Notes under the pieces: generated by a model
Databases searched by the model: none
The model's input: only the letters and a program-made list of their open reading frames with translations
Told to the model about the DNA's origin: nothing
Program-made: the position numbers and the translations under genes
In this document: in pieces, positions 2-15,431 of the stretch
How the letters are laid out: every line of letters starts with the position of its first letter
Numbering within the stretch: position 1 is the stretch's first letter
Source: an uncultured Eubacteriales bacterium
GTDB lineage: Bacteria > Bacillota > Clostridia > Oscillospirales > CAG-272
Direction: 5' to 3'
DNA: 64,000 nucleotides
Assembly: GCA_934476315.1 (NCBI GenBank)
Contig: CAKSNQ010000005.1
Location: 9,581-73,580, forward strand

Positions 2-55
2 CAGACGCTCCTTGAGCAACTGCTCGAAAAAGGAAAGGAGACAACGGTAAAATGA
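2..55 (+). CDS. 3' end of a CDS that starts before the window (17 codons visible); product unknown
   Basis: Open frame from the window edge reads ...QTLLEQLLEKGKETTVK*. Its TGA overlaps the next ATG (ATGA), which suggests an operon with the following gene. Confidence 0.3.
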   Translation, partial: QTLLEQLLEKGKETTVK

Positions 56-1419: not shown

Positions 1420-1441
1420 CGAAGGGGGACAGAGCAGAAAA

Positions 1442-2062: not shown

Positions 2063-2103
2063 AATACCAAACAAAATCTTAAGAAAAAGGAGAATTATTT
2101 ATC

Positions 2104-2910
2104 ATGGCATGCAGAAATGTTTACCGGGTACCGACGGGGGATGAGGACGGGCATATGCCCAAGAGTATGATTACCGTCCCCGCGGTGGCAAAAAATGTGA
2201 ACCGTCTCCTCTTCGGCGCCGATTCGGCAACGCGGGCAGACGTCCTTCTTCAAAACAATATCCGGGAATTTGAATGGGTGGTCCGCAACAAAATTTACCC
2301 GAATTTCTACGGCAGATACCTGACCGGAAAGGATTGCCTGACCAAGGAAGAAATCAACTTCCTTCACGACAAGGGGTGCAAGATCGCTCCGATGTGCAAG
2401 GATATCTGCACAAAGGTAACGGAGTACGAGGGGCGCATGCTCGGTAAAAAGCTCGCGCTTCGCGCTCAGGATCTGCAGATTCCCACGGGCACCGCGATCT
2501 TCCTGGAGCTTGGCGAGGAGGAGGCAGTGAAGCGCGACTTCCTGCGTGGCTACGCGATTGCTCTGATGGAGGAGGGCTATACCCCCGGCTTCAAAGCGAA
2601 TACCGACGCGGCATTTAAGTTCGACCGTGAATTCAGTCGCGGGCTTCTGACAGAGAACAGCACCTTCAGAAGATGCATGATCTGGGCGGCGGCTCCCATT
2701 ATCGACAAATTCAACGGAATCAGAACCGCTCATCTGATCCATCCGGACAGATGGATGCCGTTTGCCCCCTCGGGGATGACGAGAAACGAGATTGCCGTCT
2801 GGCAGTATGGCAAAAATGCCCATCCCATCGAGGACGACAACGGAGGAGAAACGTTCTTCAACCTCAACCTCGTTCGCAACGAACAGGTCATCATCGAGAA
2901 AATGTTCTGA
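2104..2910 (+). CDS. Glycoside-hydrolase-like protein (Rv2525c/DUF1906-type, GH25-related fold), no signal peptide
   Basis: 268-aa ORF with SD AAAGGAG. The pattern FYGRYL..LT.EE...L...G..I.P...A..A...A..L.IP.GTAIFLE recalls DUF1906. The N-terminus is hydrophilic. An alternative start exists at 2152. The family call is from memory and was not searched. Confidence 0.5.
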   Translation: MACRNVYRVPTGDEDGHMPKSMITVPAVAKNVNRLLFGADSATRADVLLQNNIREFEWVVRNKIYPNFYGRYLTGKDCLTKEEINFLHDKGCKIAPMCKDICTKVTEYEGRMLGKKLALRAQDLQIPTGTAIFLELGEEEAVKRDFLRGYAIALMEEGYTPGFKANTDAAFKFDREFSRGLLTENSTFRRCMIWAAAPIIDKFNGIRTAHLIHPDRWMPFAPSGMTRNEIAVWQYGKNAHPIEDDNGGETFFNLNLVRNEQVIIEKMF

Positions 2911-2951
2911 TACACACAACAATTCAAATAAAAATGTAAAGGAGAAAAAAT

Positions 2952-5234
2952 ATGTTAGAGAATTATCATGCCTATTACGACTACGATTCCTGCGGTGGGT
3001 CCTGCGGCGGCGATTGCCCTCCCACCCCGACCCCCGTGTACGTTACCTCCGTCAGTGTCACGCCGAGCTACCTCAGCATGAAGGTCGGAGAGTGGTCCTA
3101 TGCCCCCTACGCCTCTGTCTTGCCGTCGAACGCCGATAACAGAACCGTGCAGTGGTACAGTAACGATTCGAGCATTGCCTCGGTCAACTCCTCCAGCGGC
3201 TACGTCTACGCGAATTCGGAAGGTACCACGCAAATTTACGCGGTTGCCACGGATGGAAGCGGTTGCCGCGACTACCTGACCGTGTCTGTGAGCCGGAGAG
3301 TTCTGGTTTCCACGGTGGAATTCGATTACACGAGCGTTACCCTTGAAAAGGGAGATAGCTGGCAGATTCATGCCACGATCTGCCCGTATAACGCGGATAA
3401 CACGGGACTGCGTTGGGAAAGCTCCAACACCGATATCGCAACTGTGAGCAACGGTCTTGTCACCGCCGTATCCCGCGGCACCGCGACCATTACCGCGACC
3501 GCACGCGACGGCAGTGGCGCAAGAGCCATTTGTACGGTTTACGTGACGGAAACCATTCCCGTGACCTCCGTCAATGTCTCTCCACAGTATAAGTCGATGT
3601 ACTGCGGAACGTCCAGTTATGTTTACGCAACGGTTTCCCCGTGCGACGCTACCAATTCAGAAGTGCTGTGGAGCAGTAGTGATGAGTGCGTTGCCACGGT
3701 GAACCCGGACAGCGGTCTGGTCTGGGCACGGTGCGCCGGTACAGCGGTCATCCGCGCAACCGCCCGCGACGGCAGTGGCGTATCCGGCTGTTGCTACCTG
3801 ACGGTCACGGAACAGATTTTGGTTCAGAATATTTACCTGAATCACTACGATATGACTCTGCCTGTCAATTCGTCCGGAATTCTGGAGGCATCCATTTGCC
3901 CCGAAAATGCCACGAATAAGACGATTTTGTGGACCAGTAGCAATACGCAGGTCGCCTCCATCAACGGCGCCGGCACCGTGGTCGCAAGGGGAATCGGTAC
4001 CGCAACGATTACCGCCAGCACCTACGACAACAGTGGCGTAACGGCATGCTGCCAGGTAACGGTCGTTCCGGTTCCGATTGAGAAGGTGGAACTGAATAAG
4101 ACCAAGATGTTCCTTGGAAAGGATGAGGTTGTGCAGCTGCAGTGCAACGTGACTCCTCGCAACGCGACAGTGTCGACCGTTACATGGGAATCCTCTCCCG
4201 GCTACGTTGCAAGCGTCTCCTCGAGCGGTGCTGTGACTGCCCTTGCCGATGGTACCGCCACGGTTACGGTACGGGTCAACGGAACCTATACTGCCACCTG
4301 CGAGGTTGTCGTGGATACAAGAGAAAAGGTTGTGATTGAAAAAGCGCTTGATACGGACAACGAGGAATACTTCAAAATCAAGTTTGATGATGGAAGCATC
4401 TGGAAAAGCATTGGTTGCGATTTGTCGCTGGACGTCAATCGTTCCGGAGGCCTCATGTCTGACCCGGATGACGAACGGCTAAACTGCCCGGAGCGGAGAC
4501 ATATGAGTAATGTGAGTATGAATTTCTCCGCAAGACAGCTTGCGTTCGCTTACTTGTGTGATCCTCTGGGTGTCGAATTCTACATGAATCGTTACGACAC
4601 TTCGGCGCACCCGATTTCAGCACTTGGGCTGATGTGTTTGAAGGATGAAATTTACAAGAACATCTTCGGACGCTGGCCGCGATTGTTCCGGGAACTTCCG
4701 GATGGTCAGGTCTCCTACGTCGTGTATACGCAATCTCAGGATGTTCGCCCCCATTATTATTCCGACGCTGAAATCATGTTCGGCGGACACACCATTGTCG
4801 ATTTCCTGTCTCTTGCGTCTTTTGCCTTCAATGTTATCAACAGCATCGCGTTGTCTATCTTCTCCATGGCTTCCGATTCCTTCGGTACATTTATGACAGC
4901 TATGGATATTTCAAAGCTGCTGTTGTTCAATGGCGCAGTAGAGGACACTCTTGCTAGCGGCTCGTCGGCGGCATTGTCCGAGTATGTGAACAATGTGATT
5001 AATTCCAGCACGAGCGTTCAAGCTGTGAGAAGCGGTTTGTCGAGCAGATTCGGCTGGGCGATGAACGTTCTGGATTTGATTCCTACCATTCTGGATGCTG
5101 CAGGTGCATTTGCGCCATCGCTGAATGAAATGAAAGTTTACACCAAGATCGACTCCGAGAACTTCCGGACTTGCTTCCTGGTGGACGGCGATGAAATGAG
5201 TTTGCAGGAACTTCTTGAAAACCTTGAAAACTAA
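2952..5234 (+). CDS. Large protein with five bacterial Ig-like group 2 (Big_2) repeats plus an uncharacterised ~300-aa C-terminal domain; no signal peptide
   Basis: 760-aa ORF with SD AAGGAG 8 nt upstream. It contains five ~85-aa repeats of the form V.SV.v.P....l..G.....A.V.P.nA.N..v.W.SSn..vA.V...G.V.A...GTA.I.A...DGSG, spanning about aa 29-455. The N-terminus is MLENYHAYYDYDSCGGSCGGDC with no hydrophobic stretch. Confidence 0.8.
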   Translation: MLENYHAYYDYDSCGGSCGGDCPPTPTPVYVTSVSVTPSYLSMKVGEWSYAPYASVLPSNADNRTVQWYSNDSSIASVNSSSGYVYANSEGTTQIYAVATDGSGCRDYLTVSVSRRVLVSTVEFDYTSVTLEKGDSWQIHATICPYNADNTGLRWESSNTDIATVSNGLVTAVSRGTATITATARDGSGARAICTVYVTETIPVTSVNVSPQYKSMYCGTSSYVYATVSPCDATNSEVLWSSSDECVATVNPDSGLVWARCAGTAVIRATARDGSGVSGCCYLTVTEQILVQNIYLNHYDMTLPVNSSGILEASICPENATNKTILWTSSNTQVASINGAGTVVARGIGTATITASTYDNSGVTACCQVTVVPVPIEKVELNKTKMFLGKDEVVQLQCNVTPRNATVSTVTWESSPGYVASVSSSGAVTALADGTATVTVRVNGTYTATCEVVVDTREKVVIEKALDTDNEEYFKIKFDDGSIWKSIGCDLSLDVNRSGGLMSDPDDERLNCPERRHMSNVSMNFSARQLAFAYLCDPLGVEFYMNRYDTSAHPISALGLMCLKDEIYKNIFGRWPRLFRELPDGQVSYVVYTQSQDVRPHYYSDAEIMFGGHTIVDFLSLASFAFNVINSIALSIFSMASDSFGTFMTAMDISKLLLFNGAVEDTLASGSSAALSEYVNNVINSSTSVQAVRSGLSSRFGWAMNVLDLIPTILDAAGAFAPSLNEMKVYTKIDSENFRTCFLVDGDEMSLQELLENLEN

Positions 5235-5284: not shown

Positions 5285-6181
5285 TTACTTGACCTGCGTC
5301 TGAAATCCCGCCCATTCCGGGGATGTAAAGCCCTTGGCGTCCTTGTGATAGTACACCGTGTACTCAACAGGGCAGAACGAAATGTGAGGGACAGCCTCCG
5401 CATCGTACAGATAGGAGTCCGGAGCGTCGCCGTCAAACGTGACCTTCTTCAGCCCGCTGCAACCCGAAAAAGCCGCGTTGGTGACGGTTGTCACCGTTTT
5501 GGGGATAACAATCTCCGCCAGCTTCAAGTCCTTGGCGAAGGCTTCGATGCCGATGGTAAGCAATCCGTCGTTCAGCGTCACCGTTTTCAGGGCGGGGCAA
5601 TCCGAAAAAGCTCCGTCGCCGATAGCTTTGACGCTCTTGGGGAGAATCAATTTAGACAAGCCCGTGTTGTGGAAAGCATACGGGAAAATTTGCTCGAGTC
5701 CCTCGTAAAATTCCACGGACTCCAGCCGGGTGCAATCGGCAAAAGCAGAATCCGAAATCGTCACGACAGAGACGGGAATCCTTACATGACGCAAGGAAAA
5801 GCAACCCATGAAAGCGCTGGCGTCAATCTTTGTGAGCGAGTTGGAAAGAGTAACCGACTCAAGATACACGCACCCGGCGAAGGCATATTCGCCGATCAAT
5901 TTGACCGTATCCGGCATCGTGAGCGAAACGACCAGACTGGAGATAAAGGCTTGCGCCCCGATCTGCGTGACCGGAGAGGCGTTGATCATATCCGGAATGG
6001 CGACCGCGCCGCCCTTGCCGATATACTTGGTAATCGTGACTCCGCCGTCGCTGTTCGTCCGGTATTCAAAATCATTTGCCGGAGTGGTGGGAGTCTCCCG
6101 CGTTCCGCGGAGAGAATCACAACCGCCAAGGCAGATCAGAAGCAAAACTACGGATAGAAAACTGCAAAGTATTTTTTTCAT
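5285..6181 (-). CDS. BspA-type leucine-rich-repeat (LRR_5) surface lipoprotein, paralog 1
   Basis: 298-aa ORF with signal peptide and lipobox (LLICLGGC). It has repeated ~23-25-aa units (IP.sV..Ig..AF..C..L..v.l) and a C-terminal YTVYYHKDAKGFTSPEW. Confidence 0.8.
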   Translation of the reverse strand: MKKILCSFLSVVLLLICLGGCDSLRGTRETPTTPANDFEYRTNSDGGVTITKYIGKGGAVAIPDMINASPVTQIGAQAFISSLVVSLTMPDTVKLIGEYAFAGCVYLESVTLSNSLTKIDASAFMGCFSLRHVRIPVSVVTISDSAFADCTRLESVEFYEGLEQIFPYAFHNTGLSKLILPKSVKAIGDGAFSDCPALKTVTLNDGLLTIGIEAFAKDLKLAEIVIPKTVTTVTNAAFSGCSGLKKVTFDGDAPDSYLYDAEAVPHISFCPVEYTVYYHKDAKGFTSPEWAGFQTQVK

Positions 6182-6238
6182 TAGATACCTCCAAAGTTTG
6201 GCTGACCAAAAAAGCAGGTGGATTTGTACTTCAGATAA

Positions 6239-7132
6239 TTATCTGATCTGCGTTTGAAATCCCGACCATTCCGGGGATGTAAAGCCCTTGGCGTCTTTGC
6301 GATAGTACACTGTGTACTCAACGGGAATGAATGAAATGTGATACGTTTCCGGGTCATACAGATAAGTTTCCGGTGCGTCGCCGTCGAAAATGACTTTCTT
6401 CAGCCCGGTGCAACCGGAGAACGCCGCATTGGTAACGGTTTTCACGGTCTTGGGAATGACGATTTCTTCCAATTTCATATCTTTGGCAAACGCTTCATTT
6501 CCAATCGTAACCAGCCCGTTATTCAACGTCACCGTTTTCAGAGAGGGGCAAGACGCGAACGCCCCGATGCCGATGGTCTGAACATTTTTGGGAAGAACCA
6601 GCTTGGTCAGGCTCGTGTGGCTGAACGCGTATGCGGAAATCTGCTCAATCCCCTCGCCAAACTCCACGGTTTCCAGCCGCGAGCAGTATTGGAACGCGGA
6701 TTCCGAGATAGTTTTGACAGAGGAGGGGATTTTCACGTTTCGCAGGGAAGAGCAATTCATAAAGGCGCCGAGTCCGATGTTGGTGAGCGCGTTTGAAAAG
6801 GTGATCGACTCAAGATTTGTGCATCCGGCGAAGGCATGCTCACCGATCGAAGTCACAGTATCCGGCATCACCAGGGTGACGATCAGATTGGACATAAAGG
6901 ACTGCAACCCGATCTGTGTGACCGTGGAACCGTTGATTGTTTCCGGGATGGAGACCGCGCCGCCTTTTCCAACGTATTTGGTGATTGTGATTCCACCGTC
7001 ACTGTTTGTTTCATATTCAAAATCTTCTGTGGGACTTGTGGGAATTTTCTGCGCTCCCCGGAGAGAGTCGCATCCGCTGAGGCAAAGTAGCAACAAAACT
7101 ACGGACAGAAAACTGCAAAGTATTTTTTTCAT
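6239..7132 (-). CDS. BspA-type LRR surface lipoprotein, paralog 2 (recent tandem duplicate of 5285-6181)
   Basis: Start is taken at MKKILCSF (7132), because the upstream ATG at 7144 lies inside the SD GGAGGT. The lipobox is LLCLSGC. The protein is collinear with paralog 1 over its full length. Confidence 0.8.
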   Translation of the reverse strand: MKKILCSFLSVVLLLLCLSGCDSLRGAQKIPTSPTEDFEYETNSDGGITITKYVGKGGAVSIPETINGSTVTQIGLQSFMSNLIVTLVMPDTVTSIGEHAFAGCTNLESITFSNALTNIGLGAFMNCSSLRNVKIPSSVKTISESAFQYCSRLETVEFGEGIEQISAYAFSHTSLTKLVLPKNVQTIGIGAFASCPSLKTVTLNNGLVTIGNEAFAKDMKLEEIVIPKTVKTVTNAAFSGCTGLKKVIFDGDAPETYLYDPETYHISFIPVEYTVYYRKDAKGFTSPEWSGFQTQIR

Positions 7133-7183
7133 TGATACCTCCAAAGTTTAGTTGAACAAAAAATAGGTGGAATCTGTATGCAC

Positions 7184-7212
7184 ATTATACTATAAATTAT
7201 CGGTGCTGTCAA
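7184..7212 (-). promoter_or_regulatory. Sigma-A type promoter, exact consensus TTGACA-N17-TATAAT, driving the LRR paralog 2/1 pair
   Basis: Minus-strand TTGACA lies at 7212-7207, followed by a 17-nt spacer and TATAAT at 7189-7184, about 50 nt upstream of the ATG at 7132. Confidence 0.7.
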
Positions 7213-7517
7213 TAAGTGCCAATAATATATACAGAAAATTCATTTTTAATTGATTAAGCATATATAAAATAAGGGAAACGGGTATGGTAAGAATCCCGAA
7301 AAACTGTCGGAATTTCTTGGAAAATCGCGCAACAGAGAGAAAAACATACAGGCGTATGAAGCGCGGAGGGGGAGTAGATCTACCGCTTTCCCGATAAATT
7401 CCATTAAGAAGCATATGACCGTGCCGGGGCTTATATCACAAATATTTTCATTTTTTCCAAAATATTTTCCTGCGATTCCATAGCCTACTCGGATTTCAAG
7501 CACACGCATCTTCGTTC

Positions 7518-7545
7518 AAAAAACCACCCGTTTTGAGGTGGTTTT
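7518..7545 (-). terminator. Rho-independent terminator downstream of the third LRR gene
   Basis: Minus strand reads AAAACCACC-loop-GGTGGTTTTTT. It is preceded by a second perfect 13-bp hairpin, CCGGCACGTTCCC/GGGAACGTGCCGG, at 7561-7591. Confidence 0.7.
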
Positions 7546-7612
7546 CGTTTTGAAATCGATCCGGCACGTTCCCATTATGGGAACGTGCCGGAATAAAACA
7601 TAAACCTTAAGA

Positions 7613-8590
7613 CTATTTGATTGGAATCATCTCGTATACTCCCACCCATGCGCAGTCATCCCAGCCTTTGGCTTCCGGATGATAGTAGATTGTCGGGGCG
7701 GAGTAAAAACTTGTCGGTTCAATGATCTCGGGGCAGTCCCCTTCAAAAACAAAGCGGGCAGAGCACCCTCCCATGATCATAAAAGGCAATGTGGAAAATC
7801 TTTTGGTAGATTTAGGAATTATAATTTGAGGATTTGAGGAAATAGAAAAGTACCCATAGAAACCGTCGAGATCTTCCCATCCGTCTTTAAATATGATTTT
7901 TTCCAGAACCGGCGTTTCGTAGAAGACGGATTCAGAGGACATGAATTTTAAGTCAAGCGATGTGGGAACGCGTATTGTTTTTAGCGAAGAACAATAGCTG
8001 AATGCGGCTCTTCCGATTTTCTGAAGACCGTTCGGAAGATCAATTTCCAAAAGTGAAGAGCAATTCCGGAAAGTGATGGCACCAATTTCCACAAGAGTTT
8101 CCGGGAGCGCAATGTGTTCAAGTCCGGTACAATCTTCAAATACGCCGCCGTCCATGTCTTTTAGCGCAGTCTTCGAAAAATCAACCGTTTTCAGGTTTAT
8201 GCACCCTTGAAAAGCGCGTCCGCCAATTCCTCTAAGGTTTTTGGAGACTTTTATTTCTGTCAATTCTTTGCAGTCCCTAAATGCGTACCGCCCGATTCCA
8301 AGAACGGTATCCGGGAGAGTAACTGAACGCACGTTGCTGCCTTCAAATGCGCCAGAGCCTGGGATGCCACTGCCGGTAAAGAGAATTGAGAATACTTTCT
8401 TTCCGTCAATTTCCGCAGGAACAACAACGTTTTGAGAGGTTCCAATGTACTTGGTGATATATACCGATTGACCGTCATCGCTTAGTTTATACTCAAAATC
8501 CGTCGCCGGGGTTTCTTTCGGGGCGTTATGGCACGAGCAGAGACAAACGATGGCAAGCAGAGCGGCAAACAACAACAGAAGTTTTTTCAT
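7613..8590 (-). CDS. BspA-type LRR surface lipoprotein, diverged paralog 3
   Basis: 325-aa ORF with SD AAGGAG. It has a signal peptide and lipobox (IVCLCSC), the same FEY...ITKYIG..VVVP architecture and LRR_5-like repeats. Confidence 0.8.
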   Translation of the reverse strand: MKKLLLLFAALLAIVCLCSCHNAPKETPATDFEYKLSDDGQSVYITKYIGTSQNVVVPAEIDGKKVFSILFTGSGIPGSGAFEGSNVRSVTLPDTVLGIGRYAFRDCKELTEIKVSKNLRGIGGRAFQGCINLKTVDFSKTALKDMDGGVFEDCTGLEHIALPETLVEIGAITFRNCSSLLEIDLPNGLQKIGRAAFSYCSSLKTIRVPTSLDLKFMSSESVFYETPVLEKIIFKDGWEDLDGFYGYFSISSNPQIIIPKSTKRFSTLPFMIMGGCSARFVFEGDCPEIIEPTSFYSAPTIYYHPEAKGWDDCAWVGVYEMIPIK

Positions 8591-8682
8591 AATGTCTCCT
8601 TAATAAAATATGTAATGAATTTTGGGTGTGCCTGATTTCAAACGATGCTTACTTGGCTATTATCGGGGGACAACCTCCGGGT

Positions 8683-8790
8683 TTATCCCATGTCCGCGAC
8701 TGTCGCCGCTTTGAATGACGGGAAAAACAGTGCTCGCATCGAAAATTTTGCCGAGTCGCGTAACAGGAAAAATACAACCTTTTTTTTCAT
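8683..8790 (-). CDS. Possible 35-codon leader ORF in the long 5' leader of the third LRR gene
   Basis: ATG preceded by GGAGGTTTCA. The ORF lies between the consensus promoter (8861-8889) and the LRR gene. The peptide is MKKKVVFFLLRDSAKFSMRALFFPSFKAATVADMG. There is no family resemblance. Confidence 0.2.
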   Translation of the reverse strand: MKKKVVFFLLRDSAKFSMRALFFPSFKAATVADMG

Positions 8791-8860
8791 TGAAACCTCC
8801 AAAAGTTTTTCATAATACACTGCTTGTGACGGAAAAATAACGGGAAGCTCTCCCACGTGT

Positions 8861-8889
8861 ATTATACTATAATTTGAGCGTTTTGTCAA
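8861..8889 (-). promoter_or_regulatory. Sigma-A type promoter, exact consensus TTGACA-N17-TATAAT
   Basis: Minus-strand TTGACA lies at 8889-8884, followed by a 17-nt spacer and TATAAT at 8866-8861. It sits about 270 nt upstream of the LRR paralog 3 start. Confidence 0.65.
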
Positions 8890-9037
8890 CAGATTCCAAA
8901 CACATTGGCAAATATCTTTGCAATGCATGGCTTTTTGGGGGTCGCGTACAAAACTCCGCGATACCTGCGCAGACAAGCTCGTAAAACAAACCGAAAAGTT
9001 TTTTTCAAAAAGTCGAGAGTTGTCGATAAATTCGATG

Positions 9038-9066
9038 TTGACAAAAAAGGAAAAATATGTTAAAAT
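9038..9066 (+). promoter_or_regulatory. Sigma-A type promoter TTGACA-N17-TAAAAT reading toward the XRE/ImmA block
   Basis: TTGACA lies at 9038-9043, followed by a 17-nt spacer and TAAAAT at 9061-9066. It is divergent from the promoter at 8861-8889. Confidence 0.6.
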
Positions 9067-9431
9067 TAGAACAGCAAAGCAAAGAAAACGAAACGAAAGG
9101 CAAAAATTCGACCCTGAAAATGAAATCGACATTCCGGATTGCTCCCGTTTTTCAGTATTTCGGCAGCGCGATGACGCGTCAAAAAACCATGTCCGTCTCG
9201 TCCCATCATTTCCGATATTACGAAGAAGAAAACTTTCGCTACGTGAAAGCTGCGGTTGACAGGTATGAAAAAAAGACTGTGCGCAATGGATTCCCGCGCT
9301 CGGGAGTGACTTGGAAGCCAATGCTTTTCATATGCTCAAATCCGGTTGAAGCTGGAATTTTTTCGATGGAAATAGCCGATCGGATCAAAAAAGATTACCC
9401 GAAAATCCGAAAACGAGAAGAATGGAGATAG
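9057..9431 (+). CDS. Hypothetical protein upstream of the XRE gene (start uncertain; may be non-coding leader)
   Basis: The ORF ends with TAG 4 nt before the XRE ATG. There is no convincing SD for any in-frame ATG, the 5' part is AT-rich, and no motif is recognisable. Confidence 0.3.
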   Translation: MLKLEQQSKENETKGKNSTLKMKSTFRIAPVFQYFGSAMTRQKTMSVSSHHFRYYEEENFRYVKAAVDRYEKKTVRNGFPRSGVTWKPMLFICSNPVEAGIFSMEIADRIKKDYPKIRKREEWR

Positions 9432-9435
9432 CCCT

Positions 9436-9807
9436 ATGGGAAAGAATTACTTGCCGTTCGGCGAGTACATAAGGCAAAGACGCGAGAGCTTGAAAATGTC
9501 GATGCGGGATGTCGCCGTGAAAGTGCAGATTTCTCCCGCCTACCTATGTGACATTGAAAAAGGAAACCGCAAGCCTCCCGAAAAGTATCTGGAAAAGTTC
9601 GCGGAGGTTTTGCAGATTGCAGACGCGGACGAGCTGAATGCATTTTATGACAGCGCAGGAGTCAGCCGGAACGGACAGCATACCGACATCAACTCCTACA
9701 TCGAGGGCGTACCGTTTGCACGCATGGCGCTACGAACGGCAAAAGACAACCATTACACCAATGATGACTGGATGAGACTTGTAGAGATCATCAGACAAAA
9801 AAGATAA
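9436..9807 (+). CDS. XRE-family helix-turn-helix transcriptional regulator
   Basis: 123-aa ORF with SD GGAGAT. It has an N-terminal HTH_3 pattern (FGEYIRQRRESLKMSMRDVAVKVQISPAYLCDIEKGNRKP). Confidence 0.85.
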   Translation: MGKNYLPFGEYIRQRRESLKMSMRDVAVKVQISPAYLCDIEKGNRKPPEKYLEKFAEVLQIADADELNAFYDSAGVSRNGQHTDINSYIEGVPFARMALRTAKDNHYTNDDWMRLVEIIRQKR

Positions 9808-9809
9808 AA

Positions 9810-10565
9810 ATGGGGGGATTTCACATGCACTATGCGCAAAAGAGTAACGGTTTGTACGTACTTTACAGAAACGACATTGAGCGGATTGCAGTGGAGATCC
9901 TGAAGAGATACGCCCCGTCAAATCTGTGCGTCCCCAAACCGCTGAATACGACGGATTTTTTGGAAAACTACCTCGGGCTGGTCGTTAAGAATCGGTACAT
10001 TTGCGATTTTGGGTCCGGGATTCTCGGGTTGACGGTGATGGGAGACATCGTGCCGATTCCGTCGTACGATGAATTCCTCCGCCCGGTCATCCTGGAAGAG
10101 ACCTTCGGGACTGTTCTGATCTCGCCGCTCTTACTGAAACGGAACCGACGCCCTCGCCGCCGCTATACGGAAATGCACGAAGCTGCTCATTTTATCCTGC
10201 ACCGCCCGTATTTCGAACGGTGCGAGCGTACCACGGGGGCGGACTCGAAGTGCCCGTGTACGTTCATTGCCTGCCGCAAGGTGGAACGGGATCGGGAGGA
10301 GATCCGAACCGATCTGGACTGGTTGGAATATCAGGCAGACGCGCTTGCCGCGGCGCTTCTGATGCCGCGTGATGCCTTTGCCGCACGCGCGCAGGAGGCT
10401 TTCCGGGAGAACGGAATCCGCGGGCAGTGCATGGTGGTCGGGAAATTCGACAACTGGACCGCGCTCCACCGCGTGATTTATCAGATGGCGGAAACATTCT
10501 TTGTGTCCTATCGTGCAGCCCGGATCAGAATGTATCATTTAGGACTGATTCGCGAATATCAATAA
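9810..10565 (+). CDS. ImmA/IrrE-family (DUF955) zinc metallopeptidase
   Basis: It lies immediately after the XRE gene and carries an HEXXH motif (EMHEAAHFILH) with a downstream E..AD.LAAALLMP. An alternative start at 9825 has SD GGGGGGA. Confidence 0.8.
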   Translation: MGGFHMHYAQKSNGLYVLYRNDIERIAVEILKRYAPSNLCVPKPLNTTDFLENYLGLVVKNRYICDFGSGILGLTVMGDIVPIPSYDEFLRPVILEETFGTVLISPLLLKRNRRPRRRYTEMHEAAHFILHRPYFERCERTTGADSKCPCTFIACRKVERDREEIRTDLDWLEYQADALAAALLMPRDAFAARAQEAFRENGIRGQCMVVGKFDNWTALHRVIYQMAETFFVSYRAARIRMYHLGLIREYQ

Positions 10566-10594
10566 GTGGATCTCCATACTCTCCGCAATACGCG

Positions 10595-10627
10595 CAATAC
10601 GGTGAGCAATACACCGTATTGTTTTTT
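10595..10627 (+). terminator. Rho-independent terminator after the ImmA gene
   Basis: Perfect 10-bp stem CAATACGGTG/CACCGTATTG with a 7-nt loop and a T6 run. Confidence 0.75.
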
Positions 10628-10688
10628 ACCCCGCCTGTTCGCACTTTTGTGAACAGAGATTATCAGGCGAATATCGGAGGAGGGCTAT

Positions 10689-10886
10689 ATGACAAAGTAT
10701 CCGTGTCCTGTTTGCAACAGACGTATTTGCGATTCCGGAAAAAAGCTCTATCTTACCCGTTCCGGTGAGGAAAACGCGAGAACGGCAGACCTTTTTATCA
10801 AGTGCCAGAACTGCAAGAACACCATCGCTGTTGAGGTCATCCGGGGAATCGAATACGGTTCTCCGTGCGAGGAAACGTTTTACTGA
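10689..10886 (+). CDS. Small zinc-ribbon protein (CPxC...CxxC), architecture like the cysteine-rich KTR proteins of clostridial mobile elements
   Basis: 65-aa ORF with SD GGAGGAGGG. It has two CxxC pairs (CPVC, CQNC) about 30 aa apart. The KTR motif itself is not present. Confidence 0.55.
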   Translation: MTKYPCPVCNRRICDSGKKLYLTRSGEENARTADLFIKCQNCKNTIAVEVIRGIEYGSPCEETFY

Positions 10887-10935
10887 TTTACATTTCAAAA
10901 TTGAACCTTGTACATAGCACGATGTTTGAACATAC

Positions 10936-10983
10936 GAGCATGACAAGTAGCGTCAGAGCTATTTGTCATGCTCATTTATTTTT
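10936..10983 (+). terminator. Rho-independent terminator after the zinc-ribbon gene
   Basis: Perfect 11-bp stem GAGCATGACAA/TTGTCATGCTC followed by ATTTATTTTT. Confidence 0.7.
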
Positions 10984-11004
10984 GCGGAAAGGAGGGGGAG
11001 TGCG

Positions 11005-11343
11005 ATGGGAACTGCCGAGCGGAGACTGGAAATATACAAATATCTGTGTCTTGTCAGAAAAGCGACCATGCCTCAGCTTGCGAAGAAGTTCGGCGTTTCC
11101 GTCAGAACGATCCAGCGGGATATTTTTGAGATCGAGGCAACGTTCCGCGTCCCCCTCGAGGTGAAAACAGGGAAATACGGGGGAATCAGTGTGTTCGGTG
11201 ACTACACGCTGGACCGCGCGTATATGTGCGAGGAGGAGCTGCAGTTGCTGTGCAAGGTGCAGGCACTGGTCAAGGGGCAGGTGAGCGAGCAGGAAAACGC
11301 GCTTCTCTGCGGGCTGATTAAAAAATATTCAAAAAGTGCGTAA
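11005..11343 (+). CDS. Small HTH-domain protein (DeoR/HTH_11-like N-terminal winged helix)
   Basis: Start is taken at MGTAERRL, which has SD AAGGAGGGGG. The pattern RRLEIYKYL....ATMPQLAKKFGVSVRTIQRDI is typical of HTH_11. Confidence 0.7.
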   Translation: MGTAERRLEIYKYLCLVRKATMPQLAKKFGVSVRTIQRDIFEIEATFRVPLEVKTGKYGGISVFGDYTLDRAYMCEEELQLLCKVQALVKGQVSEQENALLCGLIKKYSKSA

Positions 11344-11434
11344 AATATTTTATCGGTGACAGTCGTTGACGGCGTTAAAATTTATAATGCAGGTACAGCC
11401 GAGCTGAAAACAAACAAAGAAAGGAGAAAATCTC

Positions 11435-11737
11435 ATGGAAGATGTAAGAAAAGACCTACAGGTTGTTCTGGAGCGTCACGAACAGCAACTTCTGACGCTT
11501 GAGCGCGACATTTCGGATCTGAGGGCGGTGCAGGCGGAGATTCGTTCGATGAACGAGACCCTCGTCACCCTGGCGACCGAAATGAAGCATACAAACGAGC
11601 ACCTGGCGCGTCACGAGCAGAAGATTGAAGCCATAGAAGCCGCCCCCCGCGCGCGGATGCAGCAGATTGCAACCGCGATCTTTGCCGCCCTCGCCGGAGG
11701 AATTATTTCTGCCGCGATTGGCATGATTTTTGCATGA
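11435..11737 (+). CDS. XhlA-like protein (phage lysis-cassette coiled-coil protein with a C-terminal TM helix)
   Basis: 100-aa ORF with SD AAAGGAG. It has an N-terminal heptad-like coiled coil and a C-terminal hydrophobic helix (IATAIFAALAGGIISAAIGMIFA). It sits directly before a holin. Confidence 0.6.
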   Translation: MEDVRKDLQVVLERHEQQLLTLERDISDLRAVQAEIRSMNETLVTLATEMKHTNEHLARHEQKIEAIEAAPRARMQQIATAIFAALAGGIISAAIGMIFA

Positions 11738-11751
11738 GGAGGGATGAAACC

Positions 11752-12042
11752 ATGAATTTTGAACAGTATATCAAGCCGGAGCTTCTCATTTTGATCCCGG
11801 TGCTGTATGTCATCGGAATCGGTCTGAAAAAAAGCAAGCTCCCCGACACGCTCATTCCTCTGATTTTGGGCGGGATTTCCATCGCCCTGTCGGCGTTTTG
11901 GGTGATCGCGACCAGCGGCATTTCTACGGCTGGTGACGTTACCTACGCGATGTTCGTGTCGGTCACGCAGGGTGTTCTTGCCGCAGGAGCCAGCGTCTAT
12001 ATCAATCAACTGTACGTCCAATCCAAAAAGAAGAAAAAGTAA
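11752..12042 (+). CDS. Phage holin family protein (Hol44/LL-H-like)
   Basis: 96 aa with SD GAGGAGGG overlapping the XhlA stop. The N-terminus is MNFEQYIKPELLILIPVLYVIGIGLKKSK. It has 2-3 TM helices and a lysine-rich C-terminal tail (QSKKKKK). Confidence 0.7.
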   Translation: MNFEQYIKPELLILIPVLYVIGIGLKKSKLPDTLIPLILGGISIALSAFWVIATSGISTAGDVTYAMFVSVTQGVLAAGASVYINQLYVQSKKKKK

Positions 12043-12056
12043 AGGGGAAGACCAAG

Positions 12057-13148
12057 ATGTTGCACCTGATTTTTATCACCATCGGCGTGATTTATAACGG
12101 AATCAGCCTGTGGTTTATTCGGATGTTTTTCAAGGAGCGGGACGGGGTCACATGGAAAAATTATCTGAAGTGCTTTGTTGGTGCTCCTGTGGGGTGCGCG
12201 GCATCCCTGTTGCTTTTCCCGATCAAAACCCCGAACCTCCTGTTATTTACGGTGATGGGAGGTCTGCTCGGGGAGCTGGGCATTCTGTTCACCCTTGCCG
12301 TAAAGCAAGCCGGCGAAAAAAATCCCGCGGGGCGATACAGCGACAGCACTCCCGACGCGCGATTTTTCATCACGGGGGACAAGCACCGTCGGTTTGCGGA
12401 GGTGAAAAAGTTCTGCCGTGTGATGGACACGAAAAGAAGCGACGTATTGATTGTCCTCGGAGACACCGGGTTCAATTACTACGGCGACAAGCGGGACGAC
12501 AAGCTCAAAAGGGAAATATCCGCTCTGGCTATCACGCTCTTTTGCCTCCACGGAAACAAGGAAAACCGCCCTCAGAATGTGGGGAGCTACGGAATCCGGG
12601 ACTTCTGCGGCGGAAAGGTCTACTATGAGCCACGGTATCCAAATCTGTATTTTGCCATGGACGGTGAAATTTACACCTTTGAAGGCAGAAAGTACATGGT
12701 TGTCGGCGGGGCGCACAGCGTGGATAAAATGCGGAGTCTTGAGGAAGGGAAGCCTTTTTGGGAGGACGAAATGCCGGACGGGGAGGTCAGACGGACAGTT
12801 GAGAACAGATTGCAAAAAGAGGAAAACAAAATCTACGGAATGTTGACGCACACCTGTCCGATCCGTTGTCTCCCGACGGAAATGTTTGTCTCAACGCGGC
12901 AAAGCGCGAATCTCCGGAACCATCCCCGCCGGGTGGCGACCATGAAAAAATCAAAAAAGTTTATCAAGCCGGATATCGACCGTTCCACGGAAATATGGCT
13001 TGGCGAGCTGGAACAAAAGCTCGAATACGAGGCTTGGTTCTGCGGTCATTACCACATTGACAAGCGCCTTGGCAAGGTCAGGATGATGTATCATGACATC
13101 CGCCCGCTACACACACCGCCCCCGGAGGATACGCCATGCCCGACCTGA
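12057..13148 (+). CDS. Membrane-anchored metallophosphoesterase (three N-terminal TM helices plus a calcineurin-like phosphoesterase domain)
   Basis: 363 aa with SD AAGGGGAAG. The first ~85 aa are hydrophobic. They are followed by the motifs GDKH, LGDTG, HGNKE (Lys in place of the usual His), GGAHS and CGHYH. Confidence 0.7.
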   Translation: MLHLIFITIGVIYNGISLWFIRMFFKERDGVTWKNYLKCFVGAPVGCAASLLLFPIKTPNLLLFTVMGGLLGELGILFTLAVKQAGEKNPAGRYSDSTPDARFFITGDKHRRFAEVKKFCRVMDTKRSDVLIVLGDTGFNYYGDKRDDKLKREISALAITLFCLHGNKENRPQNVGSYGIRDFCGGKVYYEPRYPNLYFAMDGEIYTFEGRKYMVVGGAHSVDKMRSLEEGKPFWEDEMPDGEVRRTVENRLQKEENKIYGMLTHTCPIRCLPTEMFVSTRQSANLRNHPRRVATMKKSKKFIKPDIDRSTEIWLGELEQKLEYEAWFCGHYHIDKRLGKVRMMYHDIRPLHTPPPEDTPCPT

Positions 13149-14251
13149 AGGTGCTCCTGTCACCCCTGCCGCTTTTCTTCCTGATTGTGATCGCGGGACT
13201 TGCCATCGGGAAAATACGGATTTATCACGTCTCGCTTGGAATTGCCGGTATTCTGTTTGCGGCAATTTTTGCCGGTTTTCTCATGAACCGATGGATTTCC
13301 GGAGCGCACATTCAAATATTACAGAGCGTGCAGGGAACAATGAACACATTGTCAAAGCTCGGCTCGTCCCTGTTCGTCTCTGTCATTGGATTGCAAACCG
13401 GGTTCTCCGTCAGAAACCGCTCCGGTGAGTCGCTTGCTTCCCTGGGGGTAGGCGCCGCGATGAGCACCGCGGGGGTACTTCTTGAGAGGCTGATTTCAGC
13501 GCTGGACCCGACGATCCGTGAGCCGATGCTCCTCGGCGTCCTCTGCGGCGCTCTGACGAGTACACCGGGATTGTCGAGCGTATGCGAATTGATTGACGGG
13601 CAAAGCGGGGAAGCGGTCTGGGGTTATGGGTGTTCCTATTTTTGCGGTGTTTTGTTTGCGGTGATCTTTGCCCGCGCACTGGGCGGGCGGCAAGCCGGGG
13701 AACAGCCGAAAAAGAAAACACCCGCAACGGAAAGCAAAATCCATCCGGAATGGATTCTTGTCAGCCTTCCGGCACTGCTGGGCGGGATTCTTGGCGAGAC
13801 TCGTGTGCCGATTCTGAATTTTTCACTCGGAAGCACCACGTGCACCTTACTCGCCGGGCTGGTGGTCGGCTGTGTTGCCGATCGTAAACAAAACGCACCC
13901 CGGTACTCCCGACAGGTGCTGAATGTGTTCAGAAATATAGGACTGGCGTTTTTCTTCGCGGGAACCGGGTACACCACGGGAACGCAGGCGGTCAACATCT
14001 GGGGCAAAGCCGTGATTTATGGGGCGTCGATCACCTTGACCGCGATTTTGTGCGGCATACTCCTGTGCCGCCTTGCGGCTTCAAGATTCCGCCTACGCCC
14101 CGGATTTGTCATCGCCGGCGGAATGACGAGTAGTCCCGCATACGGAGCAATCGGCACGGGTGACGACGAGGCTTGCGTGAATCATTTTTCATTTGCCTAT
14201 TTTGGCGCCATGCTTGCGCTGATGGTTGCGATTCAGATTATTGGCAGATAA
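13136..14251 (+). CDS. AAE-family (Asp-Al_Ex / YidE-YbjL-like) permease without TrkA-C domains
   Basis: 371 aa with SD GGAGGA. The start lies 13 nt inside the preceding gene. It is polytopic, with a duplicated G..T(S)TP.L signature (GALTSTPGLSS, GGMTSSPAYGA). Confidence 0.7.
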   Translation: MPDLKVLLSPLPLFFLIVIAGLAIGKIRIYHVSLGIAGILFAAIFAGFLMNRWISGAHIQILQSVQGTMNTLSKLGSSLFVSVIGLQTGFSVRNRSGESLASLGVGAAMSTAGVLLERLISALDPTIREPMLLGVLCGALTSTPGLSSVCELIDGQSGEAVWGYGCSYFCGVLFAVIFARALGGRQAGEQPKKKTPATESKIHPEWILVSLPALLGGILGETRVPILNFSLGSTTCTLLAGLVVGCVADRKQNAPRYSRQVLNVFRNIGLAFFFAGTGYTTGTQAVNIWGKAVIYGASITLTAILCGILLCRLAASRFRLRPGFVIAGGMTSSPAYGAIGTGDDEACVNHFSFAYFGAMLALMVAIQIIGR

Positions 14252-14306
14252 TTACATTCACTCACAAAAGCACCGCATAGGATCTCGTTCACCGCGGGAG
14301 AAAAAA

Positions 14307-14333
14307 AGCACTTGCAACGCAAGTGCTTTTTTT
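14307..14333. terminator. Bidirectional rho-independent terminator shared by the permease gene (+) and tRNA-Tyr (-)
   Basis: 9-bp stem AGCACTTGC/GCAAGTGCT with an A7 run on one side and a T6 run on the other. Confidence 0.8.
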
Positions 14334-14417
14334 GGTGGGAGCGGGTGGATTCGGACCACCGAAGTCAGAGACAACAGATTTACAGTCTGCCCCCTTTGGC
14401 CACTCGGGAACGCTCCC
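14333..14417 (-). tRNA. tRNA-Tyr (anticodon GTA), class II with long variable arm and encoded CCA
   Basis: Manual cloverleaf: acceptor GGGAGCG/CGCTCCC, anticodon stem GCAGA/TCTGT, loop CTGTAAA, variable stem GTC/GAC, T stem GGTGG/CCACC. The T-loop reads TCCGAAT rather than TTCGAAT. Confidence 0.9.
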
Positions 14418-14445
14418 ATATTGCGTTTGACCCGCAACAGACGGT

Positions 14446-14474
14446 ATTATATCAAAACAAATCGGATTTGTCAA
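14446..14474 (-). promoter_or_regulatory. Sigma-A promoter, exact consensus TTGACA-N17-TATAAT, for tRNA-Tyr
   Basis: Minus-strand TTGACA lies at 14474-14469, followed by a 17-nt spacer and TATAAT at 14451-14446, about 28 nt upstream of the tRNA 5' end. Confidence 0.75.
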
Positions 14475-14594
14475 GCCCTTTTTTCAATATTCTGCATTTA
14501 TTCGAGAAAATTTTCCGCTTTCTGCGCAAAACCGTGGACATTCGGGCGGAAATGTGGTAAAATGTTGACGGATAAATTTCAGGAGGACTTGTTT

Positions 14595-15431
14595 ATGTCA
14601 AGAATTTTGCTCATGTCGGATATACATTACTGCGAGCCGGTTTGGTACGGCGTACCATCGGAGACGCGTATGAAGCATATGGTGGAGGCGCTCCGGGGCG
14701 AATATGAAAGGGAACCGTTCGACCTGTTGCTTCTGCTCGGGGATTATTCGCTGGATTTTTGGGTGTACCCACCGTACGGCTCGGTTCTGAATCGCGGAAT
14801 TTCCTTTACCGAGAAGTTCATCCAGGAAGTCTACCCGCTCCTGCCGCCCTGCCCGAAATTCATGATTCCCGGAAACCACGAGCAGTACGGAGAGGAAAAC
14901 TGGCGTCGACTGACCGGCTTTTCCCGGCGCACAACGGTTCCGTACGGACGGAATCTGTTTATTCTTCTCGATAATTTTGCCGCCGATCTTGACCCGACCG
15001 TGAACAGCGACGGGACATATACCCCAGCGGATGTTGCGTATATCCGGGAGCAGATGGCGGCGCACCCCTCCGACCACGTCTTTCTCTGCGCGCACGAATT
15101 CATTCCGGAGGAGGAGAGCGAGGAGTTCAAGACACTTGTCCGTGAGGACGACCGTATCGTTGCGCTGTTTGCCGGGCATACTCACCTCTCGAAGCCGATC
15201 CCGCTCGGCGAGGCGTTCGGCAACAAATACCTGATCCGCGACGGACAATTCTCGTACTCCAAGGACCTGCCGAACAGCTGTTGGGGATGGCGGGAGATTC
15301 GGTTTGAGCCGAACGGACGCGTGACCACGGCATACATCACGCCGGACAGCGATCTGATTCCCGGAGGAAAGCCCATGCACCATACGGGTGGCAAGCAGGA
15401 CGCAATGGTGCTGGTGGAGGCGAACGGCTGA
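14595..15431 (+). CDS. Metallophosphoesterase (cytoplasmic, calcineurin-like)
   Basis: Start is at MSRILLMSDIHY with SD AGGAGG 8 nt upstream. Motifs are DIHY, LLGDY, GNHE and GHTH. The longer annotated ORF (from 14226) would run through the tRNA. Confidence 0.85.
   Translation: MSRILLMSDIHYCEPVWYGVPSETRMKHMVEALRGEYEREPFDLLLLLGDYSLDFWVYPPYGSVLNRGISFTEKFIQEVYPLLPPCPKFMIPGNHEQYGEENWRRLTGFSRRTTVPYGRNLFILLDNFAADLDPTVNSDGTYTPADVAYIREQMAAHPSDHVFLCAHEFIPEEESEEFKTLVREDDRIVALFAGHTHLSKPIPLGEAFGNKYLIRDGQFSYSKDLPNSCWGWREIRFEPNGRVTTAYITPDSDLIPGGKPMHHTGGKQDAMVLVEANG

Follow-up and report, generated by a model that had tools for sequence, protein, structure and literature searches.

At positions 11435-14251 of the DNA analysed here, a 64-kb stretch of contig CAKSNQ010000005.1 from an uncultured Eubacteriales bacterium (the whole stretch is called the window below), four tightly packed genes on the + strand encode an XhlA-like protein, a Hol44-family holin, a metallophosphoesterase (MPE) anchored by transmembrane (TM) helices and a short permease of the AAE family. 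Our results show that this operon is conserved among gut Clostridia outside prophages, and its gene neighbourhood suggests that it may serve the release of large toxins that lack signal peptides.

The four-gene operon

The first-pass annotation of this DNA had described four packed genes on one strand, and the open reading frames (ORFs) lie exactly where it placed them, with the spacing it gave. The first gene (11435-11737, + strand) encodes a 100-aa XhlA-like protein with an N-terminal coiled coil and a C-terminal TM anchor, and is the most conserved component of the operon. Against Pfam XhlA (PF10779) the protein reaches 15.3 bits (E=0.022), which is below the gathering threshold of 34.7 bits; the PHROG 'hemolysin' profiles phrog_937 (1.7e-7) and phrog_1193 (2.5e-4) match it, and it has the architecture and position of an XhlA-type protein, namely the coiled coil, the C-terminal TM helix and a gene immediately 5' of a holin gene. 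In the alignment of the XhlA-like proteins (A3) the stretch EIRxMNETLVTLAxExKHTNEHLxRHExKI is nearly invariant. Note that residues 52-63 carry the invariant KHTNEHLxRHExK, with histidines at i, i+4 and i+8 (H52, H56 and H60) of a cytoplasmic helix; these could be a metal- or pH-sensing face.

The second gene (11752-12042, + strand, or 11734-12042 with an upstream start) has its main ATG at 11752 behind a GGAGG Shine-Dalgarno sequence that sits on and just past the XhlA stop. Its product matches Phage_holin_5_2/Hol44 (PF16079) over positions 1-75 of the 76 of the profile (2.3e-22, 79.5 bits, cutoff 29.2) as well as the holin profile phrog_1129 (1.9e-21), and is 36-51% identical to annotated holins of Clostridium and C. 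difficile phages. The other in-frame ATG, at 11734, lies across the XhlA stop (stretch 11734-11754). Two in-frame starts are present in most endolysin-less loci among the relatives described below, where an ATG or GTG over the XhlA stop (ATGA) adds M-R-x-x-x ahead of the main Met (about 25 related loci); endolysin-containing loci mostly have one. This arrangement resembles the S107/S105 dual-start motif of phage λ. The Arg codon added by the upstream start coincides with the Shine-Dalgarno sequence, and three loci (L013, L018 and L019) have no upstream start. We have set aside a dual-start, antiholin-like reading of the holin, which is not separable from the constraint that the Shine-Dalgarno sequence imposes.

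The MPE gene (12057-13148, + strand) follows the holin gene after 14 nt and overlaps the permease gene (13136-14251, + strand) by 13 nt, as read in the sequence. The operon ends at a GC-rich hairpin between an A-run and a T-run (14297-14335, AAAAAAAGCACTTGCAACGCAAGTGCTTTTTTT), which resembles a bidirectional terminator. A tRNA-Tyr gene (GTA anticodon, 14333-14417, - strand; ARAGORN, Rfam tRNA 50 bits) lies there and marks the right-hand island boundary in this genome; an Rfam scan of 8500-14700 gave nothing besides this tRNA. Strong profile E-values and the same order in dozens of independent loci make the four-gene arrangement more than chance. Judged by the profiles, the labels are of unequal strength, solid for the holin and the permease and weak for the XhlA-like protein: the first-pass labels Hol44, MPE and AAE are upheld by matches above cutoff, and XhlA by architecture, position and phrog_937, its Pfam match being below cutoff.

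The metallophosphoesterase and the permease

The 363-aa product of the third gene has TM helices at about residues 2-26, 42-51 and 58-87 and a catalytic domain at about 100-355, which matches Pfam Metallophos (PF00149; 3.7e-7, 31.2 bits, cutoff 21.5) and phrog_1649 (2.1e-16). An alignment of 102 sequences shows no variation at D108, H110, D136, H165, E169, H265, H331 and H333, and has N167 in at least 90%. All five motifs of the first-pass annotation are in the sequence, and the lysine of its GNKE motif (K168, motif III) is invariant in the TM clade, soluble relatives having GNHE; the histidine of its 'GGAH' motif (H220), by contrast, is not conserved in the same alignment. The window protein lacks the general-acid histidine of the GNH(E/D) motif of calcineurin-like MPEs.

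An AlphaFold2 model built on the 102-sequence alignment has a predicted local distance difference test score (pLDDT) of 82.5, mostly above 90 in the catalytic domain; a shallow alignment of 23 sequences gave only 52. Foldseek searches with the model returned, at E<=0.001, MPE-type entries (LpxH, aq_1956) and one spliceosome chain, with further MPE folds (Mre11, PptH (6unc) and TT1561) also within the best 50 of 441 matches. Similarity is weak throughout (TM-score <=0.53, 9-15% identity), and a PDB sequence search with the MPE profile gave nothing at E<=1. The first-pass annotation had taken the protein for a phosphoesterase and not for a peptidoglycan hydrolase. In support of this, the best 50 of the 441 Foldseek matches hold MPE folds and no peptidoglycan-hydrolase fold, and no amidase, lysozyme, CHAP or peptidase profile of Pfam or PHROG matches the protein. 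The model thus assigns it a metallophosphoesterase fold.

Over 44 sequences the mean number of lysines and arginines is 3.55 in loop 1, 0.09 in loop 2 and 2.84 after the third TM helix. Because of these positive-inside counts the MPE probably has its N-terminus outside and its C-terminus inside, with the catalytic domain facing the cytoplasm. A role as an extracellular, teichoicase-like third lysis factor was ranked low, as the same counts put the catalytic domain in the cytoplasm.

Full-length homologs number in the hundreds at 59-69% identity. Clustering at 50% identity shows how narrow the TM clade is: of 258 clusters at E<=1e-30, just a handful include the TM region. The MPE derives from a large soluble family of phages and hosts, with a His-to-Lys change in motif III. 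The soluble members (phrog_1649; for example XPP58145 of the Oscillospirales phage PV036458) are 36-47% identical to it in the catalytic domain and share all metal-binding motifs, whereas they are about 230 aa long with a canonical GNHE, and the window MPE has the added, conserved three-TM anchor and GNKE. The soluble homolog in an annotated Oscillospirales phage is encoded in the early region after the repressor, outside the lysis cassette. Note that the window has a second, soluble metallophosphoesterase just past the tRNA gene (about 14598-15431, + strand; Metallophos 1.5e-12); since none of the related loci has a homolog of it, it looks like an unrelated chromosomal neighbour.

The permease (371 aa) matches Asp-Al_Ex (PF06826) in two stretches (5.5e-35, 121 bits) and TIGR01625 (2.2e-23, 82.7 bits, cutoff 71.95). 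It has the two repeats of the AAE family and is not a full-length AspT/YidE/YbjL equivalog, which would be about 550-560 aa long with a central TrkA_C: no TrkA_C domain was matched in its 371 aa, and the AspT/YidE equivalog models of NCBIfam score 33-64 bits against cutoffs of 449-646, so that its matches are to generic AAE domain models alone; for the holin and the MPE NCBIfam had no meaningful match. On these profiles it is a short anion or solute permease.

Conservation of the operon and the endolysin slot

To place the operon among its relatives, one genome per species, metagenome loci and the window were combined into 61 non-redundant loci anchored on the TM-MPE (loci here and below are labelled L plus a number), all from uncultured gut Clostridia. 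A metagenome survey anchored on the XhlA-like gene gave 19 distinct loci with at least 3 kb downstream. With three MPE homologs the cassette HTH_11, XhlA-like, Hol44, TM-MPE and AAE stands in otherwise unrelated surroundings, and over the loci these vary between RHS arrays, serine recombinases and defence genes.

The holin gene abuts the MPE gene, as in the window, in 22/61 loci from different gut Clostridia, outside intact prophages, and the AAE gene lies directly 3' of the MPE gene in 39/61. In 20/61 loci an endolysin gene of about 1.1 kb, encoding Amidase_2 (3.1e-14) or CHAP+SH3_3, is inserted between holin and MPE, which makes the MPE an additional gene further downstream. This contradicts the earlier idea that phosphoesterase and permease fill the endolysin slot. 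The observation that the window has no endolysin was correct: tblastn with the Amidase_2 and CHAP endolysins of the relatives finds no homolog anywhere in its 64 kb. When the MPE sequences are placed in a neighbour-joining tree, loci with an endolysin fall on deep, scattered branches, and the endolysin-less loci form mainly one crown clade that includes the window. This placement fits loss followed by diversification, and the endolysin-less state of the window therefore looks like a derived loss.

The 19 XhlA-anchored loci have Hol44, adjacent to the XhlA-like gene, in 15, an endolysin in 6, MPE in 8, AAE in 6 and toxin or accessory genes in 15. Lack of an adjacent endolysin is the commoner state (13/19), eight XhlA-holin pairs have neither endolysin nor MPE, and the presence of endolysin and of MPE is uncorrelated (odds ratio 1.6, p=1). 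Because of these counts and of the missing correlation, the gene content indicates that the XhlA-like protein and Hol44 are the constant core, with endolysin, MPE and AAE each facultative; an obligate holin-MPE-AAE unit, as the first-pass annotation implied, does not hold, since MPE is found in only 8/19 and AAE in only 6/19. The idea that the MPE replaces the endolysin was likewise ranked low, the two being uncorrelated and often present together. AAE occurs with the holin and without MPE in L161/L162, and the anchored MPE occurs without AAE in L017, L045 and L047; each therefore associates with the holin operon and not with the other.

Holin-MPE junctions are usually of the coupling type, with gaps of 14-30 nt or overlaps, so that translational coupling of the MPE to the holin operon appears to be the rule. 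In the endolysin-less clade the operon genes are under strong purifying selection, with approximate ratios of nonsynonymous to synonymous substitution (dN/dS) of 0.055 for XhlA, 0.095 for Hol44, 0.049 for MPE and 0.167 for AAE. Several variant cassettes were seen as well (L161 9998-11691, L204/L205 and L183/L186): XhlA-Hol44-AAE without MPE, an RHS gene directly after XhlA-Hol44, and XhlA-Hol44 with nothing recognisable downstream. In L151-L157 XhlA stands alone after the accessory operon described below.

The operon is not prophage debris

When the ORFs of the 61 loci were clustered, the recurrent families were island genes and serine recombinases, and no capsid, tail, terminase or integrase family recurred across the 61 loci. 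Among the 2.9 million viral contigs of IMG/VR the TM-anchored MPE was not found, the best matches being 37-38% identical and confined to the soluble domain. A tblastn search of 50,697 phage records with the XhlA-like protein gave no match. In IMG/VR that protein had four matches: a pair of 4-kb fragments that belong to this same system, a truncated copy lying where its contig ends, and a distant match (26% identity) that failed the phmmer follow-up screen. The truncated copy lies at the edge of a 41-kb IMG/VR contig (L219, 1-6000) and is followed by a transposase and phage head genes. It is the sole hint of a tie to a real phage, and may instead reflect a neighbouring prophage. In the window, the flanks past the tRNA-Tyr gene hold housekeeping genes. 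Because of the recurrence in 22 loci, the purifying selection and the absence of the TM-MPE from the viral contigs, we conclude that the operon is a conserved non-prophage module and not prophage debris, in support of the first-pass reading of a module as against accidental prophage decay.

A larger island of toxins and accessory enzymes

Toxin or accessory genes lie within about 10 kb in 39/61 MPE-anchored loci and in 15/19 distinct XhlA-anchored loci, and the four-gene operon is, as far as gene content tells, part of a larger island of RHS/Big_2 toxins without signal peptides in uncultured gut Clostridia. RHS proteins belong, with the TcC subunit of Tc toxins, to the YD-shell proteins. The cargo in the relatives comprises RHS proteins that reach about 2,100 aa in length (1e-116), Big_2-DUF6531-RHS proteins and Big_2 proteins with LCAT/PGAP1-like lipase domains, and small unannotated genes, some of them multi-TM and immunity-like, follow the cargo genes. 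The signal peptide is absent from every examined toxin with a complete N-terminus. The first-pass annotation, which saw a holin module re-wired to a phosphoesterase/permease pair, was right about a conserved module that has no endolysin in the window lineage; it overlooked that MPE and AAE are facultative, and missed the toxin island including 52-5234 of the window itself.

In the window the candidate cargo is a 760-aa protein (2952-5234, + strand) with five Big_2 repeats (Big_2 1.4e-65), whose N-terminus, MLENYHAYYDYDS, holds no signal peptide. It is 38% identical over its full length to the protein at the same position in L019, and its N-terminal Big_2 region resembles that of the RHS and lipase toxins in the relatives; a PDB sequence search with its C-terminal ~300 aa gave no match.

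Each cargo gene is preceded by a companion, either an Rv2525c-like gene or a gene of the 370-aa family f16. The Rv2525c-like gene lies directly 5' of Big_2-type cargo wherever both were identified (window, L021, L043, L044, L046 and L051). It precedes toxins that start with Big_2 (L021 11302-12108; L043 6838-7647), and f16 precedes other RHS proteins (L017 9359-10471; L053 10941-12071). Such a pairing of companion and toxin resembles the adaptor/effector pairing of other secretion systems. The companion of the window (2104-2910, + strand) is a glycoside-hydrolase-like protein, also without signal peptide, that matches PF08924 (4.3e-4; 7.4e-12 in L043) and is 58% identical to that of L021. It might be a wall hydrolase or wall-active factor, and it is a candidate for the peptidoglycan hydrolase of the window cassette.

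The accessory operon consists of six genes, which encode an NTP_transf_5 protein, a thymidylate-kinase-like protein, a PP-binding carrier protein, a 346-aa protein of family f7, an AMP-binding ligase and a CYTH-domain protein. Its order recurs in 19 MPE-anchored loci (for example L021 6228-11278 and L017 4434-9375). In our genome it begins upstream of the window, which holds only the last two genes (52-2062): the AMP-binding ligase (52-1419, + strand; Pfam AMP-binding 5.9e-60; 62% identical to family f9 of L045) and the last enzyme, the CYTH-domain protein (1442-2062, + strand; Pfam CYTH 1.1e-14; 48% identical to the CYTH protein of L021). The operon might make a nucleotide- or acyl-carrier-dependent modification of a toxin, the envelope or a small molecule. 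PDB sequence searches with f7 and f16 gave matches at chance level only (E 0.2-0.7).

Three BspA-type leucine-rich repeat (LRR) lipoproteins are encoded on the - strand at 5285-6181, 6239-7144 and 7613-8590 (LRR_5 3.2e-55, 3.5e-54 and 1.9e-36). Lipoproteins of this type, with lipobox signal peptides, are found on the opposite strand beside XhlA or between the cargo and lysis operons: in the same place as in the window in L019 (5713-9235), and beside XhlA in L151 (10557-14008) and L152. Their membership of the system is uncertain. The GC content dips to 0.43-0.46 over 5285-8590.

The island is apparently undescribed. We found no description of this locus in the literature searched on holins, the type 10 secretion system (T10SS) and Rhs/polymorphic toxins, in agreement with the earlier remark that the architecture is not that of a described system. 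S8-PTS (PMC9424270) is a different system.

Regulatory block and leader

Upstream of the operon, profiles confirm the XRE/ImmA block noted in the first pass, and 11 of the MPE-anchored loci, together with several from metagenomes, share the order XRE-ImmA-Znr-HTH11-XhlA. The XRE-type repressor (9436-9807, + strand) matches HTH_3 (1.3e-10) and the PADLOC capH profile (1.7e-7), and the ImmA/IrrE protease of family M78 (9810-10565, + strand) matches Peptidase_M78 (1.4e-7) and PADLOC capP (1.5e-12). A 65-aa zinc-ribbon protein of the CxxC...CxxC type follows (10689-10886, + strand); no Pfam family matches it above threshold, and its homologs (E 1e-12 to 1e-19) lie between ImmA or a LexA-like repressor and HTH11 in many loci. 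The last gene of the block encodes a small HTH_11 regulator (11005-11343, + strand; HTH_11 1.3e-8), with its likely ATG at 11005 (MGTAERR) and a mechanical ORF start at 10963. A 113-aa HTH_11 homolog lies directly 5' of XhlA in most loci, and L052 has a second HTH_11 paralog 5' of the accessory/toxin operon. In other loci a LexA/CI-like repressor with HTH and Peptidase_S24 domains replaces XRE/ImmA. We propose that XRE/ImmA may act as a stress or DNA-damage switch and that the HTH_11 protein may activate the lysis operon.

Directly 5' of the HTH_11 gene lies a non-coding leader (10906-10990, + strand) with a terminator-like hairpin (10936-10973) and a T-run. It is about 70 nt long, with ACTTnGTACATAGCACGATGTnnAACATAC followed by a 14-16-bp hairpin and the T-run, and is present as well in L001 (about 6870-6950), L008 (6949-6987) and L022 (7630-7667); its conservation far exceeds that of the flanking proteins. 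Its 13-mer core CATGACAAGTAGC is exact in 31 loci, always on the + strand and, where checked, just 5' of HTH11. In a 24-sequence alignment the 14 pairs of the hairpin are kept through one-sided G.U changes, and no compensatory changes were found. A second hairpin lies 3' of ImmA. The leader suggests derepression followed by terminator read-through or activation, and its layout could be likened, by inference, to that of λ PR'-tR' before the lysis genes. A near-consensus promoter, TTGACA-17-TAAAAT with an upstream TG, is present at 9038-9066. The unannotated ORF that follows it (9057-9431) stops 4 nt short of the start of XRE and may add a gene at the front of the regulatory operon.

A proposed role in toxin release

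The island context of RHS/Big_2 toxins without signal peptides points to toxin release over other roles. We therefore favour, at a probability of roughly 0.55, the reading that the four genes would be the stress-switched release module of a conserved chromosomal or mobile polymorphic-toxin island, found in Oscillospiraceae, Acutalibacteraceae and metagenome-assembled genomes labelled 'Eubacteriales'. Stress or DNA damage would inactivate the repressor, and read-through or activation by way of the zinc-ribbon and HTH_11 proteins would then switch on XhlA-holin-(endolysin)-MPE-AAE, probably in a subpopulation. Toxins folded in the cytoplasm would leave through the membrane lesions made by the holin; in loci with an adjacent endolysin (Amidase_2 or CHAP), this enzyme would open the way through the wall. 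Since the lineage of the window seems to have lost the adjacent endolysin and has kept XhlA and holin, release there would rely on the holin alone, on host autolysins, or on the Rv2525c-like or accessory proteins. MPE and AAE may tune envelope precursors, nucleotides or the membrane potential at release.

Several points weigh against this reading, whose support comes wholly from gene neighbourhood. Beside the window holin there is no recognisable peptidoglycan hydrolase, so a defining part of a T10SS is missing there. The candidate cargo of the window (2952-5234) contains no domain recognised as that of a toxin, lacks an immunity gene beside it and is separated from the lysis operon by three opposite-strand genes. 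Known T10SS and pathogenicity locus (PaLoc) loci contain nothing that corresponds to MPE and AAE, and the model leaves the two unexplained. Moreover, several loci have defence-island-like surroundings (type I restriction-modification, ThsB-TIR, Macro/ADP-ribosylglycohydrolase), which also fits a suicide or defence role. The absences counted in the loci are lower bounds because many contigs are short, and dS is near saturation, which makes the dN/dS figures approximate.

One alternative, which we consider unlikely, is an abortive-infection or suicide defence in which XRE/ImmA senses phage or DNA damage and the holin, with MPE and AAE, collapses the membrane and so kills the cell before the phage completes its cycle, the toxins being passengers of a variable island. 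It would account for the matches of XRE and ImmA to the regulators capH and capP of cyclic-oligonucleotide-based anti-phage signalling systems (CBASS), and for the type I restriction-modification, ThsB-TIR, Macro/ADP-ribosylglycohydrolase, AAA_14/DUF4143 and Lar genes near some loci, and killing needs only a holin and no endolysin. Yet the sister loci have full endolysins, superfluous for a suicide effector, the neighbours that recur most strongly are not defence genes but RHS/Big_2 toxins and the genes of the accessory operon, and the four operon proteins have no meaningful PADLOC match beyond weak coiled-coil matches of XhlA. Another alternative is a decaying prophage lysis cassette that lost its endolysin and has an unrelated phosphoesterase and transporter as chance neighbours. 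The holin's identity to phage holins, the tRNA gene at the right end and XRE/ImmA-type regulators, which are typical of prophages, would all fit, but the order is identical in 22 loci of different species with dN/dS of 0.05-0.1, the junctions are tight or overlapping throughout, and the 61 loci and IMG/VR gave neither a recurrent capsid, tail, terminase or integrase family nor the TM-MPE, respectively; we give this explanation hardly any credence.

Two further alternatives concern the MPE and AAE. They might work with the accessory enzymes in making, trimming or exporting a small molecule or in modifying the envelope or a toxin, for instance by PptH-like removal of phosphopantetheine from the carrier protein or by hydrolysis of a nucleotide intermediate, and be merely co-transcribed with the holin. 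The Foldseek matches to the phosphopantetheinyl hydrolase PptH (6unc) and to the nucleotide-sugar pyrophosphatase LpxH are in line with this, as are the PP-binding carrier protein and nucleotide-handling enzymes of the island, the MPE that abuts the accessory operon in L017, L041, L045, L047, L048 and L053, and the AAE that follows the holin without MPE, beside the accessory operon, in L161/L162. Since 42/61 MPE loci have no accessory-operon gene in the fetched flanks, coupling to the holin operon is the rule and the structural similarity is weak (TM-score <=0.53, 9-15% identity), we regard this as possible but doubtful. The other alternative makes the MPE a new lysis effector that renders the endolysin dispensable: by hydrolysing pyrophosphate or phosphodiester bonds of envelope precursors (UDP-sugars, lipid-linked or lipoteichoic-acid precursors) at the inner face of the membrane, it would cause the wall or lipoglycan layer to fail once the holin fires. 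LpxH, a membrane-associated UDP-diacylglucosamine pyrophosphatase, is among its structural neighbours, the protein has a membrane anchor and a predicted cytoplasmic orientation, a whole clade has holin and MPE without endolysin, and for other phages it has been proposed that accessory lysis factors overcome glycopolymers anchored in the membrane (LysZ; bioRxiv 10.1101/2025.06.24.661397). No substitution pattern is seen, however: endolysin and MPE are uncorrelated (odds ratio 1.6, p=1) and co-occur in 20 loci, and 8/19 XhlA-holin pairs have neither. The catalytic-acid histidine of motif III is a lysine, and the TM-MPE was not found among the viral contigs of IMG/VR, all of which leaves such an effector improbable.

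Returning to toxin release, a more specific and quite tentative form of it, which we would not expect to hold in full, is a Gram-positive toxin-export system in which a domesticated XhlA/Hol44 pair releases toxins without signal peptides and, in the endolysin-less clade, the holin, the LpxH-like MPE and AAE would together weaken the envelope or time the triggering, under a λ-Q-like leader/terminator switch. If true, this would be an enzymatically new mechanism of lysis or secretion. How Gram-positive bacteria release large RHS-type toxins without signal peptides or domains of the LXG/type VII secretion system (T7SS) kind is largely unexplained, and for C. difficile it is still disputed whether toxin export by holins involves lysis. 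The natural variants of this locus family (amidase, CHAP or no endolysin, with and without MPE, with and without AAE) make both release questions directly testable. Gut commensals of humans and animals carry the family in abundance, and an island with its own accessory enzymes and regulatory leader could shape strain competition in the gut.

Comparison with known systems

T10SS-dependent lytic release of a Tc toxin is known from YenLC of Yersinia entomophaga (PMC10847048). As in that case, a phage-derived lysis cassette outside a prophage is encoded together with large, cytoplasm-folded toxins without signal peptides and with a dedicated regulatory block, and 20 sister loci have a genuine endolysin after the holin. 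Of the parts that define a T10SS, the window has the holin outside a prophage beside a toxin locus and lacks the cognate peptidoglycan hydrolase. The differences are a Gram-positive host without spanin, the XhlA-like partner, a window clade without endolysin, and an island that adds TM-MPE, AAE and the six-gene accessory operon, none of them known from a T10SS.

In the PaLoc of C. difficile the holin TcdE and the endolysin remnant TcdL release toxins without signal peptides from a lysing subpopulation (PMC12485765). The window shares with it the clostridial host, a holin without functional endolysin beside large toxins of this kind, and a small dedicated regulator upstream (PMC12485765, PMC12150058). 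Release by lysis of a subpopulation is plausible here as well. The holin of the window is of the Hol44/PF16079 family, and TcdE belongs to PF05105, so the two holins are probably not of one family. The island toxins are polymorphic RHS/Big_2 proteins with immunity-like genes, whereas those of the PaLoc are large glucosylating toxins; the regulators are XRE/ImmA, the zinc-ribbon protein and HTH_11 instead of the sigma factor TcdR, and MPE and AAE are absent from the PaLoc.

The PBSX-type lysis cassette of Bacillus subtilis has the order xhlA-xhlB-xlyA (see also PMC5589764). Its TM-anchored coiled-coil gene, followed by holin and amidase, has a parallel in the XhlA-like genes, holins and amidases of the sister loci, and the logic of an SOS-type induction would be alike too. 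The window operon differs in lying outside a phage-like element, in an XhlA match below the Pfam threshold, in a holin of the Hol44 family, and in having MPE and AAE appended where no amidase is present. As occurs with ImmR/ImmA and CapH/CapP, an HTH_3 repressor gene and then an M78 metalloprotease gene lie directly upstream of the operon that they would control, so that the gene pair itself is of the known kind; what it would control here is a holin operon instead of an integrative and conjugative element or a CBASS operon, with the zinc-ribbon gene, the leader/terminator and HTH_11 interposed.

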